Origin: Candidatus Saccharimonadales bacterium
GTDB taxonomy: Bacteria > Patescibacteriota > Saccharimonadia > Saccharimonadales > JACDBH01
Length of the DNA stretch: 64,000 nt
Assembly (NCBI GenBank): GCA_041752595.1
Contig: JBGSWE010000004.1
Coordinates: 151,057-215,056, forward strand
Direction: 5' to 3'
The stretch's first letter is position 1. The number at the start of each line of letters is the position of its first letter. This document shows positions 28,763-56,206 of this stretch, in pieces. The notes beneath the pieces were generated by a model that saw only the letters and a list, made by a program, of their open reading frames with translations, did not search any database and was not told the origin of the DNA. Position numbers and translations under genes: made by a program.

Positions 28763-29028
28763 GAATAAAATCCTTTTATACTAACTTTTATTTAGTTAAC
28801 TTGTTCGACCTAATTTAGTTAACTTTGATTACAGACGAAAAACGTCTTCGTATTACTACAAAGACGTTATATGAATAACAATTAATGTTTTTCACCTCGG
28901 TAGCATTCTTAAATTCATTTGTTTAGGATGAATCGCTACTATCTTTGGTAATCAGATATTATTATACTTTATATTGTAGTTGTTGTAAATAATTTAAGAA
29001 ACCTACAGCTATATATAAATGATAAACA

Positions 29029-29229
29029 TTAGCAGTCTAAGATTTCAGTTGCACCTCTAACTAATAATGTTCCAGAAAGTATGCCAATTTTCTCCGCTTC
29101 TCTTTGATCAGTTGTTCTGCCATCATACGAATCAACTCCTAAAATCTCAGCTCTTATTCTTTCTGATTCCTCATCATTCAATGGACATAATTCAGTGCGT
29201 ACTTTATTTTCTATAGCAAATTTTTCCAT
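29029..29229 (-). CDS. Hypothetical small protein
   Basis: I place the start at Met12 of the tracked ORF. That ATG (29229) follows the upstream stop (29231-33) by one nt. Confidence 0.35.
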   Translation of the reverse strand: MEKFAIENKVRTELCPLNDEESERIRAEILGVDSYDGRTTDQREAEKIGILSGTLLVRGATEILDC

Positions 29230-29230
29230 A

Positions 29231-29416
29231 TTAATCCCCGAATGGTATTTCTGGCTCTTCACCTTGTTCGGTTATTGATACATGCTCTTTGGTAGTTATT
29301 TCTCCGGTTGGTATAGAAACTTTTTGCTGCTGCTGTTGCTGTAAGAGTGGCCTCATGTAAAGCCTGTGTTCATAGTGTTGCTCAGTAAGATGTTGTGGTC
29401 TGTATTGTTTTTCCAT
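29231..29416 (-). CDS. Hypothetical small protein with a Q6 tract
   Basis: 61-aa ORF lying downstream of a structured leader. I recognise no motif. Confidence 0.35.
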   Translation of the reverse strand: MEKQYRPQHLTEQHYEHRLYMRPLLQQQQQQKVSIPTGEITTKEHVSITEQGEEPEIPFGD

Positions 29417-29441
29417 ATTGTTCTCGCTTAAGTGATTAAAA

Positions 29442-29469
29442 AATAAAAAAAGCTTCCTGGTGAAGCCTT
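29442..29469 (-). terminator. Intrinsic terminator hairpin within a minus-strand leader
   Basis: The minus-strand RNA reads AAGGCUUC-ACCAG-GAAGCUUU, followed by UUUUAUUU. One pair is G.U on the minus strand but an A/C mismatch on the plus strand, which favours the minus strand. Confidence 0.6.
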
Positions 29470-29621
29470 GATGGTTGGTTAATGGTCTTGTTAGCTAATT
29501 CATTTGGCTTCACCGCGCGCAACAAGACCTAGGTTGTTAATCACTAGTGACAGTGTGGTCATGTTGTTTGCGAATATGTGTGCCATTAACTCAATAATAC
29601 ACACAAATTCTATGAACTCAA
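29470..29621 (-). promoter_or_regulatory. Candidate promoter plus structured leader (riboswitch/attenuator-like)
   Basis: TTGAGT-16 nt-TATTAT on the minus strand (29621-29594). A 9-bp helix pairs 29484-92 with 29521-29. Segment 29506-14 is complementary to 29459-67, which overlaps the terminator stem. Confidence 0.4.
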
Positions 29622-29630
29622 AATAAATTG

Positions 29631-29659
29631 TTGACAACGTAAATAGTTGAGAGTACACT
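29631..29659 (+). promoter_or_regulatory. Sigma70-type promoter
   Basis: TTGACA (29631-36), a 17-nt spacer, then TACACT (29654-59). Confidence 0.55.
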
Positions 29660-29790
29660 CCACACCGTTATGACACATACCAGTTCACTACATCAAGCAA
29701 TGCCAGCAAAGCGTACGTTTTGCTATTTTAATATTGCCCAAATTAGTGCTGGAAAAGTTTCGTAAATATAAATAATATTTGAACCGCGCA

Positions 29791-29823
29791 ACCGACTCCA
29801 GCACAATGGAGTCGGTTTTTTTT
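29791..29823 (+). terminator. Strong intrinsic terminator inside the 5' leader of the 29842 ORF
   Basis: 10-bp stem ACCGACTCCA/TGGAGTCGGT with loop GCACAA, followed by seven T. It ends 18 nt before the ATG. Confidence 0.8.
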
Positions 29824-29841
29824 AAGGTCAAAAGGAGTAAT

Positions 29842-30150
29842 ATGACAGTCCTAGAAGCAGAACAGGTCGAGCCCAGGATAGAATTGCCTGCCGGAATAGA
29901 GATAAATAGTGAAGTTGTAAGCGACTTAGGAACTATTACTCTTCTTGCGGGCAATGTTTTAATTGTAAAAATTGATCCAGAAATTATAAATACCTATCAA
30001 AAGCATTCTGCTGAAGGTGTGGCATTATCTGGTTTACTATTTAATCTAAGGGAAAAATTAAGTAAAGAGCATCAACTGATTTTTAGTACTGTACCTGGTG
30101 AACCATCCAAGATTGGAATATGGGTAGGTTTAGATGACGGAGACAATTAA
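29842..30150 (+). CDS. Hypothetical protein
   Basis: I place the start at the internal ATG, which is preceded by AAGGAG (29832-37). The tracked N-terminal extension would run through the terminator. Confidence 0.5.
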   Translation: MTVLEAEQVEPRIELPAGIEINSEVVSDLGTITLLAGNVLIVKIDPEIINTYQKHSAEGVALSGLLFNLREKLSKEHQLIFSTVPGEPSKIGIWVGLDDGDN

Positions 30151-32477
30151 CTAATTTGATTCAATTTGAATTGAGTGTAGCGCTCAGCTGCCAGTCTAGA
30201 CAGTTCTTGGTCTTCGCCTTTATTAACAAACTTCATAGCGGTTGCAAGTAGTGGGTGTACTTCCGATAGCTTATCGTGCATTTCCTTAACAAGTTTTCTA
30301 TAGCCAGGATGACCTTGTGGTGATGTTCTAAGTTCGTGCAAATGGAAAGCTTCGCGTGCGTTATATGTTATCTTCCAGCGCATACGATGACCTAGGAGAG
30401 TTGCATACTGCGCTTCTAATTCATAGTTCTTACTTTGTAGTAGGCTAAATAATTCTGCGGCCATATCAAAACATGATTCATAATCATCAGCTAGACCAGC
30501 CTGCTCTATTAGACTAGGCATATCAAATCCATATCTTGGAGTAAGTTGTTGCCATTCTAAACTATCAACCATTCTGTGTCTTTGTAGGTCTCTAAATATT
30601 CCATAATCACAAATAAGATCGTAAGAATAGTGGGCTATTTCTAATGCTCTGCCCGGTTTATGTCTTCTGTTTAGCCTTTCTCCAATATATGTATCAAAAG
30701 TTTCCAGTTTTTGTTCATAGCTCCAGTTTGCAACTTCTTTATGTAGGTCTTTTAAACTCATATTACTGTGTTCGTAAAGCATGTGAGGTAGTAGATCCAG
30801 TTCGTTCCTGGGCCAATAATCAACTAGCTGAACGTCTTCATCTAATGATCCTGAATTGTTTGGAAGGAGTTTATCGTTAATATTTCGCATAGCACTATGC
30901 GTACTTGCCTTATAGGCAATGTTTGCCCCTCCCCTATCTGGCTTATCAGCTCTTTCTAGGAATGTGGGCATCGTTTTACGTGCTTCTATTAGCATAGCTT
31001 CTCCGGTAGTTTTGGCTTCAGGCAGGTCGTCGGAAAGCAAATGCATAATTAAACTTTCTAATGCTTGTCCTGAGGCAAATATTCCAACAGTTGATTTTGT
31101 GGCAACCGGTAAAACGGCCCTAACCGCATCACATGCTTGAGCTCTTGATGCTCCCTGGAATGCTACATCCCTTTCACTTTCTGGTACATTACTGTGTTCA
31201 CGCACATAAGAAGTTAGGACATGTACCATTTCTGAATATTTATCAAAAATAGCATCCATAGTTTCAATATATTTTGATTTTACTTCTTCTGATAATTGTT
31301 CGGGCACAAAATAACGGTACATTCCATTATTATCTTTTTGATCAAAATATATATAGCGAGTTGATTGCTCTAGGTAAGATGCAAGTCGACCCCACTCCAA
31401 TTTTTTGGTTAATAGATTACTGGCATTTTCTACAACTAAATGTTGTCCAACTAGTTGTTGAACAGAATCGTCACCGTAAGCTGTTATTACGCGGTGTAAA
31501 AGTTTCTCATCTTTGCCCTTTGCTCCTGCAAATTCATCTAGAATTGTAATGCGCATATCATCACCGCGACGACTTAGTCGGGCCATTGCTGCTGCAACTG
31601 TAGTTGCGGATAGCTTATCTGTAAATGCATAAACATCGCCATCGACATTTGTGACTGCTGATTCAAGTAACTCCCGACCTTCTGTAGTGATTATAAAGTT
31701 GCCATTTTTATTTTTCTTCACAAACAACGGATCATTATCTAGTTTATTTGGAGCAACTATTTCTTCTTGTTTTTGTTTAATAACTTCTTGAATAGGTGTA
31801 GCTGGTTTTGTATGTACGCTCAGTGGTGGTGCTGTTTCTGATACCGTTTTAGCTTTACTGATGTTTCCATGTAGTGCATTCCAGATACTTACTGAAATCT
31901 CATCAATTTCATTAGATGCGTTAATTACTTGATAATCTCTTTGTTTTGCCTCCCAAAGATAGCCAGCTCGGACTCTTTCTAAAAATGCTTCATCTAAATT
32001 ATCAAATCGTTCACCTGCCCCTCGTTTTTCCGCTCGGTCTCGCAGCGTAGCAACAGGTGCGTCAAGGATTATAGTCATATCTGGTTCCATATCACCTACT
32101 GCAAAATCAATTATTTTTGTGATTGTTTCGTAATCTGGGACATCACCACGACCATAATACTGAATAGCTAGAGTGCTAAGGTAGTTTCTGTCACATAAAC
32201 ATATGACTCCTTGTTCACGAGCCTTTCTAATAACCTCAAGTGACTGGCTACGAGCTGCGTTGTACAGTAATGCTTCTGTACGAGTGTTCATAGGATATTG
32301 AGGGTCCTGAGTCAGCATACGAAGCGTACGAGCGGTAATGTCGCTTTGGCTGTCTGGCTCCCTGAATAGTCTAACTGGGTATCCTTGCTCGCGTAGGCGT
32401 TCAGCAAGTAATTCGAGCTGCGTAGTTTTGCCGGAGCCTTGAGGACCTTCCAGTACAATATAGCGGCCACTATTCAT
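30147..32477 (-). CDS. Fusion protein: thymidylate kinase + tandem ThyX-like (flavin-dependent thymidylate synthase) domains
   Basis: 776 aa. The N-terminal roughly 200 aa look like Tmk (VLEGPQGSGKTTQ P-loop). The C-terminal roughly 550 aa hold two ThyX-like halves: one degenerate (WGRLASYLEQSTRY) and one with the RHR motif (DLQRHRMVDS...TPRY). Confidence 0.8.
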   Translation of the reverse strand: MNSGRYIVLEGPQGSGKTTQLELLAERLREQGYPVRLFREPDSQSDITARTLRMLTQDPQYPMNTRTEALLYNAARSQSLEVIRKAREQGVICLCDRNYLSTLAIQYYGRGDVPDYETITKIIDFAVGDMEPDMTIILDAPVATLRDRAEKRGAGERFDNLDEAFLERVRAGYLWEAKQRDYQVINASNEIDEISVSIWNALHGNISKAKTVSETAPPLSVHTKPATPIQEVIKQKQEEIVAPNKLDNDPLFVKKNKNGNFIITTEGRELLESAVTNVDGDVYAFTDKLSATTVAAAMARLSRRGDDMRITILDEFAGAKGKDEKLLHRVITAYGDDSVQQLVGQHLVVENASNLLTKKLEWGRLASYLEQSTRYIYFDQKDNNGMYRYFVPEQLSEEVKSKYIETMDAIFDKYSEMVHVLTSYVREHSNVPESERDVAFQGASRAQACDAVRAVLPVATKSTVGIFASGQALESLIMHLLSDDLPEAKTTGEAMLIEARKTMPTFLERADKPDRGGANIAYKASTHSAMRNINDKLLPNNSGSLDEDVQLVDYWPRNELDLLPHMLYEHSNMSLKDLHKEVANWSYEQKLETFDTYIGERLNRRHKPGRALEIAHYSYDLICDYGIFRDLQRHRMVDSLEWQQLTPRYGFDMPSLIEQAGLADDYESCFDMAAELFSLLQSKNYELEAQYATLLGHRMRWKITYNAREAFHLHELRTSPQGHPGYRKLVKEMHDKLSEVHPLLATAMKFVNKGEDQELSRLAAERYTQFKLNQIS

Positions 32478-55219: not shown

Positions 55220-55248
55220 GCGTATGTAAAAATAGCCCTTTTGTGGGG

Positions 55249-55452
55249 CTATTTCTTTGGGTTTACTGTGTTACGTCCAAGATTCTTCTTGGTTTCTTCG
55301 TACCATGCATGCGCACGAATAACTGGGTCATATTTTCTTAAGCGTAGTTTTTCTGGCGTGTTCATAGTATTTTTGGTTGTGTAATAAGTACGATGACCAG
55401 AAGCCTCGCTAACCAAACCTACAATTTTGCGCTTATCGCCTTTTTTTGCCAT
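55249..55452 (-). CDS. rpmG: 50S ribosomal protein L33
   Basis: 67 aa. KIVGLVSEASGHRTYYTTKNTMNTPEKLRLRKYDPVIRAH aligns with L33 of the non-zinc type. Confidence 0.9.
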   Translation of the reverse strand: MAKKGDKRKIVGLVSEASGHRTYYTTKNTMNTPEKLRLRKYDPVIRAHAWYEETKKNLGRNTVNPKK

Positions 55453-55888: not shown

Positions 55889-55963
55889 TGGAGCCACGAC
55901 TGGGATTTGAACCCAGGACCCCGAACTTACCATGTTCGTGCTCTACCCCTGAGCTATCGCGGC
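55889..55963 (-). tRNA. tRNA-Thr (anticodon GGT), CCA encoded
   Basis: Acceptor stem GCCGCGA/TCGTGGC, anticodon stem CGAAC/GTTCG with loop ATGGTAA, T-arm CTGGG-TTCAAAT-CCCAG. Confidence 0.9.
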
Positions 55964-56005
55964 TCGTCATTGTGTGATCAATTTCTATGAGCACGTATTT
56001 AAGTA

Positions 56006-56091
56006 TGGTGCAGAGTGAAGGATTCGAACCTTCGAAGGCGAATGCCGAGAGATTTACAGTCTCTTGTGTTTGACCGCTTCACTAACTCTGC
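56006..56091 (-). tRNA. tRNA-Tyr (anticodon GTA), long variable arm, CCA encoded
   Basis: Acceptor stem GCAGAGT/ACTCTGC and anticodon loop CTGTAAA. It has a class II variable arm and the T-loop GGTTCGAATCC. Confidence 0.9.
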
Positions 56092-56129
56092 ATATATACA
56101 TGTAAGATTGCTTTAATCTGTAAATAGTC

Positions 56130-56206
56130 TGGAGCCACCTGTCGGATTCGAACCGACGACCCTCAGTTTACAAAACTGATGCTCTAACCAGCTGAGCTAA
56201 GGTGGC
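56130..56206 (-). tRNA. tRNA-Thr (anticodon TGT), CCA encoded
   Basis: Acceptor stem GCCACCT/AGGTGGC, anticodon stem TCAGT/ACTGA with loop TTTGTAA, T-arm GTCGG-TTCGAAT-CCGAC. Confidence 0.9.

Follow-up and report, generated by a model that had tools for sequence, protein, structure and literature searches.

A probable leader-peptide transcription attenuator with leucine, valine and isoleucine control codons upstream of orphan micro-genes in Saccharimonadales

Ribosome-mediated transcription attenuation is textbook knowledge for the leu, ilvGMEDA and ilvBN operons of enterobacteria, whose leader-peptide attenuators are represented in Rfam by Leu_leader and related models. In mycobacteria, translation of leaderless short open reading frames (ORFs) such as the polycysteine sORFs controls a downstream operon according to the supply of one amino acid, by a mechanism that is not known to be a simple intrinsic terminator switch. 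The ilvBNC attenuator of Corynebacterium glutamicum consists of terminator, antiterminator and anti-antiterminator hairpins with leucine (Leu) and valine (Val) control codons, and its first hairpin is proposed to be a transcription pause that synchronizes the ribosome (PMC11857589). Our full-text literature search for leader-peptide attenuation in Saccharibacteria or Patescibacteria found no published report and returned unrelated papers only. Here we analyze a minus-strand leader in a stretch of 64,000 nucleotides (nt), hereafter the window, which is part of one contig (JBGSWE010000004.1, positions 151,057 to 215,056) of the 889-kb, 98.8% complete genome of a Candidatus Saccharimonadales bacterium (GCA_041752595.1). 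The element lies inside a divergent intergenic region of 426 bp (29417-29841), and we consider it likely to be a ribosome-mediated (leader-peptide) transcription attenuator that reads Leu, Val and isoleucine (Ile) codons.

The leader begins with a promoter, TTGAGT (29621-29616) and TATTAT (29599-29594) separated by a 16-nt spacer, which scores 9 of 12 matches and aligns with the TTGACA-17-TAGGAT promoter of a same-genus relative. It had been proposed in an earlier reading made from the letters alone (the sequence-only reading), and it holds up here. Seven nucleotides after the -10 box stands the ATG of a leader ORF, MAHIFANNMTTLSLVINNLGLVARGEAK (28 codons plus TGA, 29586-29500), which was absent from the elements listed in that reading. 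The ORF runs into a hairpin, P1, with its 5' arm at 29529-29519 and its 3' arm at 29495-29484. The 9-bp core of P1, GGUCUUGUU (29529-29521) paired with AACAAGACC (29492-29484), is the helix already reported for this position, and a GC/GC extension with one bulged U (U29493) brings it to about 11 bp. The P1 loop contains both the leader stop codon and the 5' strand of the antiterminator, GGUGAAGCC (29514-29506), which forms codons Gly25-Glu26-Ala27, with the stop codon 3 nt further on. A perfect complement of this strand, GGCUUCACC (29467-29459), is shared between two structures, being the 3' strand of the antiterminator and most of the 5' arm of the terminator. The intrinsic terminator, AAGGCUUC-ACCAG-GAAGCUUU followed by a U-tract (hairpin 29469-29449, whole 29437-29469), was recovered by a terminator scan; its stem has eight pairs, including one G.U (G29467-U29451), and a predicted energy of -8.2 kcal/mol. 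P1 is connected to the shared strand by an A/C-rich linker, AUUAACCAACCAUC (29470-29483), in which an ACCAA-like motif recurs in alignments of relatives; we conjecture that the linker acts as a pause site or as a pseudoknot loop. The spacings in the window are about 4 nt from P1 to the antiterminator strand, about 10 nt after that strand, and a 16-nt A/C-rich connector. P1 and the antiterminator have no nucleotide in common, and P1 merely encloses the antiterminator strand in its loop. An 8-nt long-range complement that takes in the AUG (29590-29583 with 29485-29478) and a 10-bp palindrome, TCACTAGTGA (29550-29541), both noted earlier, are indeed present, in the window sequence only; neither proved to be conserved.

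Under the proposed mechanism, transcription would start at or beside the AUG of the leader ORF, and P1 (29529-29484) would fold behind the polymerase. An undelayed ribosome would melt P1, reach the UGA 3 nt past GGUGAAGCC and cover GGUGAAGCC, leaving GGCUUCACC to pair only with GAAGCUUU, so that the terminator forms and a transcript of about 145 nt ends at about 29442-29445. If charged Leu, Val or Ile transfer RNA (tRNA) were scarce, the ribosome would halt between L12 and V22, upstream of GGUGAAGCC; the free GGUGAAGCC would then pair with GGCUUCACC once the latter is made, no terminator would form, and the micro-ORFs downstream would be transcribed, with read-through possibly extending into the leader of rplJ. 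In order to model these states, the window leader was folded with a 27-nt ribosome footprint masked, allowing nested folds only. With the A-site on Leu19 or Leu21, P1 was blocked and the GGUGAAGCC-GGCUUCACC antiterminator was predicted, and with the A-site on the stop codon GGUGAAGCC was covered and the terminator was predicted. The minimum-energy fold of the free RNA is the antiterminated form; in this fold the 5' arm of P1 can base-pair with AACAAC.AUGACC, a segment upstream of it, and inspection by eye showed this pairing in some relatives only. In the proposed direction of regulation, read-through would rise when charged tRNA is scarce. P1 itself may be a pause hairpin synchronizing ribosome and polymerase, or an anti-antiterminator that hinders the loop strand topologically.

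The anatomy of the window element is that of a leader-peptide attenuator in that a short translated leader carries a cluster of amino-acid codons, an intrinsic terminator lies between the leader ORF and the first gene, and an antiterminator uses the terminator 5' arm. As in the enterobacterial leu and ilv attenuators, the short leader ORF has Leu, Val and Ile control codons, terminator and antiterminator share a strand, a ribosome at the stop codon blocks the antiterminator, and ilvB, leuA or ilvA-type targets are found, here in four relatives. Unlike those attenuators, the element matches no Rfam model even at E ≤ 10, the window leader is probably leaderless and has no Shine-Dalgarno sequence, P1 has the antiterminator strand in its loop, whereas a classical 1:2 hairpin pairs with that strand, and in the window, whose genome lacks the pathway, orphan micro-ORFs are the targets. 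The likeness to the mycobacterial polycysteine sORFs lies in the leaderless small ORF, whereas the amino acid and the RNA differ. With C. glutamicum ilvBNC, the element shares a Gram-positive-type attenuator of anti-antiterminator, antiterminator and terminator as well as the Leu and Val control codons, whereas phylum, sequence family and targets differ, and the hairpins of ilvBNC overlap in sequence, which P1 and the antiterminator of the window do not (PMC11857589). We regard the element as an unusual variant of the textbook mechanism.

To search for relatives of the element, we used DNA similarity, an exact-pattern scan and two successive covariance models. The DNA similarity search of 41 relatives gave matches in four genomes only, with a conserved core (29547-29436) in three relatives, and the exact-pattern scan of genome contigs returned six stretches, three of them true (in the same relatives) and three chance matches in unrelated phyla. 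A covariance model built from four sequences (R1) found matches in 17 of 20 family genomes at E ≤ 0.01, of which 15 were accepted on inspection; those in G011 and G012 look like plain terminators. R1 matches were absent from G010 (99% complete) and from G017 and G019 (63-67% complete). A second model built from 15 sequences (R2) gave matches in 30 of 151 sampled genomes of the order, across many families, and 26 new loci were accepted; L058 from the order search and L026 and L027 from the family search were rejected as ordinary gene-end terminators. Among 150 genomes sampled from the phylum beyond this order, six had weak matches (28-32 bits), which on inspection were all ordinary gene-end terminators. 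In total, 41 Saccharimonadales loci were analyzed, including two from unpublished genomes (L011 from G003 and L017 from G016). A search of 29416-29842 against Rfam gave no match at the gathering score, and only noise at E ≤ 10, for example a plant microRNA model that scored 19.4 bits where its gathering score is 105. This agrees with the sequence-only reading, in which the fold was not recognized as a known riboswitch class, and on these sequence comparisons the attenuator is a new RNA family, absent from Rfam. Within the window, a weak match to the attenuator model at 55221-55330 on the minus strand (24.6 bits, E = 8e-4), in which only the terminator part aligned, is probably an ordinary terminator beside a tRNA cluster (55892-56206).

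Folding of the single sequence gave modest support to a minus-strand structure. The predicted minus-strand fold of 29430-29600 has an energy of -34.8 kcal/mol (z = -2.03, with 6 of 200 shuffles as stable), and the plus strand of the same segment folds more stably, at -49.0 kcal/mol (z = -3.32). Since the single-sequence folds are weak and favor the plus strand, the case must rest on comparison, and the comparative evidence for the structure, drawn from the sequences of the relatives, is decisive. When the 15 family members were aligned with MAFFT, pairing reached 97.6% in P1, where both partners have changed in 6 of 11 pairs, and 88.7% in the antiterminator, GUGAAGCC/GGCUUCAC, where this holds for 4 of 10 pairs; none of 500 shuffles matched the observed pairing, and slid controls were 28-49% paired. 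Wobble pairs (G.U or U.G) fill 13 of 315 cells of this alignment and would be A/C mismatches on the opposite strand, which indicates, as the single G.U pair of the terminator had suggested in the sequence-only reading, that the minus strand is the functional one. The idea that the plus strand of 29430-29600 is the functional RNA thus has its greater folding stability in its favor; this stability comes mostly from the complements of the minus-strand helices, and in each locus it is the minus strand that carries promoter, ATG ORF, U-tract and downstream genes. We give the idea practically no credence. In the alignment of all 41 sequences, which was fitted to the covariance model and is hence biased towards the structure, P1 and terminator together show 96.2% pairing and compensation in 15 of 17 pairs, P1 alone is 98.4% paired, and the terminator helix is 93.6% paired with all 8 pairs compensated.

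The competition between terminator and antiterminator was surveyed locus by locus in the 39 loci with a called P1, with mis-called P1 rows retained and flagged. The median energy of the duplex between the loop and the 3' antiterminator strand is -21.3 kcal/mol versus -11.7 kcal/mol for the terminator, and in 29 of the 39 loci no more than 2 of 200 shuffles reached the antiterminator duplex. The 3' strand of the antiterminator overlaps the terminator 5' arm by at least 4 nt in 35 of the 39. Compensated antiterminators are seen in published genomes, with GUGGAGUC/GGCUCCAC in G007 and CCCGUGAAGCCG/CGGCUUCAUGGG in G005, and one triple compensation of antiterminator, shared strand and terminator rests on the unpublished genome G003. 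No obvious terminator was present in three of the P1-called loci (L043, L054 and L044, the last at a contig end). The covariation and the overlap together indicate that the competition between terminator and antiterminator is a selected feature. The 9-bp helix, the perfect loop complement, the terminator sharing its strand and the mutual exclusion of the two pairings had all been described from the window alone, and each is borne out by the relatives: compensatory changes in P1, covariation of the antiterminator in the 15-member alignment and pairing of the terminator across the 41 sequences.

The leader ORF is as widespread as the helices. An in-frame ATG ORF of 19-32 codons that ends in the P1 loop was found in 41 of 41 loci, and every locus has a sigma-70-type promoter followed by an ATG a few bases past the -10 box, upstream of the conserved core. 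The distance from the -10 box to the ATG is 7 nt in 17 loci and 8 nt in 12 (29 of 41 together), 9 nt in four, 10 nt in four, 11 nt in two, and 3 nt and 12 nt in one each. Such short gaps suggest that the messenger RNA starts at or beside the AUG, and the leader is therefore probably leaderless. In a promoter-first test that was blind to the ATG, the ORF of the first ATG ended in the P1 loop in 32 of 41 loci; six loci had no ATG after the chosen promoter, one failed and two were unscored.

The leader ORF bears on two further explanations. The sequence-only reading had spoken of riboswitch or attenuator logic, and a metabolite or ion riboswitch would treat P1 and the loop-to-3' pairing as an H-type pseudoknot aptamer that stabilizes the antiterminator on ligand binding. 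The topology is capable of a pseudoknot, with about 4 nt between P1 and the loop strand and a 16-nt A/C-rich strand after P1, and no protein partner of the element is known. Nevertheless, there are zero Rfam matches, and the conserved region ahead of P1 has the marks of a coding sequence: all 41 loci have an in-frame ATG, the N-terminal part differs in length while no locus loses the frame between the ATG and the Leu/Ile/Val run, and the changes CUC to CUA and AUU to AUC in the conserved, non-helical CUC GUG AUU are synonymous. Nor does conservation across the order extend to the unpaired nucleotides of the loop. We regard a riboswitch as very unlikely, and the attenuator half of the earlier suggestion is the one upheld, by the covariation and by a conserved leader ORF with its run of Leu, Ile and Val codons. 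Alternatively, the 28-amino-acid (aa) hydrophobic peptide could itself be the product of a free-standing small-protein gene, with a terminator that merely ends the transcript and no downstream regulation; the conserved hydrophobic core (NLVI..G..) and the strong terminator after the peptide would fit this. However, the C-terminal third of the peptide follows the RNA pairing, and the GUGAAGCC box is read in differing frames in differing subgroups, which indicates that conservation of the leader is partly driven by the RNA. In addition, the antiterminator covaries with the terminator, and a downstream ORF lies about 11-27 nt past the U-tract with no promoter between, making a stand-alone gene hardly credible.

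For the attenuator, the codons of interest are those just before and inside the P1 5' arm. In the window, this control-codon run (29553-29521; CUG..CUA GUG AUU..CUA GGU CUU GUU) comprises Leu12, Leu14, Val15, Ile16, Leu19, Leu21 and Val22, and the Leu-Val-Ile triplet CUC/CUA GUG AUU is almost invariant in the family. Codons were counted in 36 of the 41 loci, after dropping L020 and L023, which the helix finder did not resolve, and L024, L032 and L037, in which P1 was mis-called. Among the eight codons preceding the P1 arm, Leu, Ile and Val account for 172 of 288 (60%), compared to 25% in the long ORFs of the window. In the same 36 loci, the stop codon always precedes the P1 3' arm, by 0-25 nt, and lies near the end of the antiterminator 5' strand.

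Four distant loci of the same RNA family precede genes of branched-chain amino-acid enzymes, and there the attenuator has cognate targets. In L054, the leader ..SIIVVIVNL.. precedes the large subunit of a biosynthetic acetolactate synthase (TIGR00118, 625.8 bits, above the cut-off); in L049, ..LDLLLLAL.. precedes a 2-isopropylmalate-synthase-like gene, so named from its best NCBIfam matches, which runs off the locus; in L051, ..HLLLSL.. precedes a gene for an HMGL-like protein; and in L039, ..LAIIMAI.. precedes one for a threonine ammonia-lyase-like protein. A RidA-family gene is part of the operon in L040 and L041. Leader composition thus tracks the downstream enzyme, which is the signature of classical hungry-codon attenuation. 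Three further leaderless leader ORFs with terminators were observed in genomes G148, G092 and G121. Two of these are weaker-scoring attenuator-like leaders: that of L063, EIMIIITPP, stands before another IlvA-like gene, and that of L061, with ILVIIV, before a 153-aa ORF, just downstream of the HMGL-like gene. The third (L062) has a YWF-containing leader before a small ORF and a gene that, read by eye, is tryptophanyl-tRNA-synthetase-like. Attenuation may be a common regulatory mode in the order Saccharimonadales.

In the window, the terminator is followed on the minus strand by two micro-ORFs, the first of 61 aa (29231-29416) and the second of 66 aa (29029-29229), an orphan with an EILG..SYDG motif. 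Neither has a Pfam or NCBIfam match, a large protein homologue search returned only the query, and matches in the ESM Atlas to phage tail-chaperone clusters were all below 0.9 and were rejected. The second micro-ORF matches the second ORF of one relative, the unpublished G003 (BLASTP, E = 7e-5), and gave no match to its G009 counterpart (E = 24). Both micro-ORFs are fast-evolving, and the first differs even in the same-genus relative. The first micro-ORFs of relatives share only a C-terminal FGD or FGE (..PFGD or ..FGE, then the stop; 29231-29245 in the window). The codons of this C-terminus also make up the Shine-Dalgarno sequence (GGAG/GGGGA) for the following ORF, which points to coupled translation more than to conservation of the protein tail. 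A loose motif, [SP]-Y-[DA]-G-x-[TE], occurs in micro-ORF proteins of nine loci. In most loci the downstream ORF begins 11-27 nt past the U-tract, mostly behind an AGGAG-like sequence; the window's own sequence upstream of the first micro-ORF is GAG-like only.

Further downstream on the minus strand lie a promoter-like site, TTTACA-17-TATAAT (28989-28961, 11 of 12 matches), and directly after it a ribosomal protein L10 leader (28827-28966; Rfam RF00557, 58.6 bits against a gathering score of 44), followed by rplJ and rplL. The L10 leader is a separate, protein-binding leader just upstream of rplJ, 470 nt downstream of the attenuator. No terminator was found between the micro-ORFs and the rplJ leader in the window, so read-through into that leader is possible. 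Of the 41 loci, 25 have rplJ no more than 1.5 kb downstream. This neighborhood raises the explanation that the same anatomy is a general sensor of translation capacity or ribosome stalling, in which the signal would be the promptness of any ribosome on a leaderless leader, and hence ribosome availability or translation inhibitors, and not Leu, Val or Ile supply in particular. It would account for targets that are not amino-acid genes and for the rarity of the pathway in the family (of 20 genomes, none has acetolactate synthase and one has an HMGL-like gene, and at least 15 keep the attenuator), for the position upstream of rplJ-rplL, and for the antiterminated fold of the free RNA, given which an untranslated leader would read through. 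However, the codon run is specifically of Leu, Ile and Val, and in the four loci above it varies in composition according to the enzyme encoded downstream; moreover, in 19 of the 25 loci a promoter-like site of its own precedes rplJ by about 190 nt, and a terminator separates the attenuator unit from rplJ in 8 of the 25. We therefore consider a general translation sensor rather unlikely, and prefer an attenuator that reads Leu, Val and Ile codons.

The window genome gave zero matches to TIGR00118 (acetolactate synthase), HMGL-like, RidA, IlvD, KARI and PALP, while all controls responded. The sole branched-chain-related family found in it is a class-IV aminotransferase on another contig (C11, 22137-22832, locus L076; 151.9 bits), a candidate branched-chain or D-amino-acid aminotransferase, which is inside an operon and begins immediately behind the stop codon of the preceding ORF (1394 to 1396).

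Several observations weigh against reading the window element as a Leu/Val/Ile attenuator. First, absence of the pathway families from a 98.8% complete genome means that biosynthetic feedback cannot be its purpose, and the genes that the window attenuator regulates are not amino-acid genes. The link from leader to enzyme comes from only four loci, and Leu-rich leaders also stand before micro-ORF and rplJ loci. Counted over the whole window leader, Leu, Ile and Val make up only 8 of 28 codons (29%), near the 25% background, so the enrichment is positional. At the start of the leader, a second promoter, TCAACA-16-TAGAAT (29634-29607), ties with the first at 9 of 12, and the window is, with its two tying promoters, among the six loci without an ATG in the blind test; TTGAGT-16-TATTAT is preferred because of its homology with the same-genus relative, and the leaderless start in the window is likewise read from spacing and homology. 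Finally, the element has no 1:2-type hairpin that pairs with the antiterminator strand, and for an A-site on Leu14 or Val15 the minimum-energy prediction combines an intact P1 with the terminator. A stall at these codons would thus lead to read-through only if the loop strand paired in an H-type pseudoknot.

The opposite side of the intergenic region holds a second, different leader-peptide attenuator on the plus strand (29631-29825), pointing the other way, with the ORF 29842-30150 downstream. Its promoter, TTGACA-17-TACACT (29631-29659), has its -35 box back-to-back with that of the minus-strand attenuator, and its 31-codon leader ORF (29670-29765) starts 10 nt past the -10 box and contains an internal hairpin (29705-29724). 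The strand GUGCUGGA (29746-29753) is complementary to UCCAGCAC (29797-29804) within a terminator (29790-29817), downstream of which come a Shine-Dalgarno sequence, AAGGAG, and an orphan ORF of 102 aa. A script recovered the divergent promoter-plus-ATG pattern in 14 of the 41 loci, and only about 10 of these have a short leader ORF with its stop just before a CUGCUGGAA-like strand; the exceptions are L011 (a 1-codon ORF), L038 (an 11-codon ORF), and L033 and L036 (ORFs of 92 and 102 aa). The C-terminal halves of the twin leaders are rich in Ile, Leu, Val and Tyr. Beyond the twin, the stop of the 102-aa ORF overlaps, convergently (30147-30150), that of a minus-strand gene (30147-32477) encoding a 776-aa fusion of thymidylate kinase (residues 9-197) and ThyX-type thymidylate synthase, and synteny of this fusion gene with the attenuator is maintained in relatives.

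A wider reading, which we offer tentatively and hold to be somewhat doubtful as a whole, joins a rewired attenuator, a switch for orphan micro-ORFs, a new loop topology and the divergent twin. Host-dependent Saccharibacteria without branched-chain synthesis would have kept a hungry-codon attenuator under selection, and this may have been rewired to sense host-supplied Leu, Val and Ile, or free 70S ribosomes on a leaderless leader. The antiterminator strand would sit in a conserved hairpin loop, so that read-through needs a pseudoknot or melting by the ribosome; the genes switched on would be fast-evolving orphan micro-ORFs beside the ribosomal stalk operon; and the twin and the minus-strand attenuator would together form a divergent, amino-acid-responsive control region.

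Very little has been learned so far of how these reduced, episymbiotic bacteria control their genes. The presence of the attenuator in at least 15 of 20 family genomes, none of which has acetolactate synthase, together with its compensated helices, suggests that the charging of Leu, Val and Ile tRNA is monitored for a non-biosynthetic purpose. The R2 family, with its 41 loci, could enter RNA family databases, and annotation would gain as well, as leader ORFs and micro-ORFs of this kind fall below the usual thresholds of gene calling. With its 145 nt and defined control codons, the element is a compact switch, its orphan micro-ORFs are the first candidates for a starvation response, and the cells plausibly use it to read the nutrient supply of their host.

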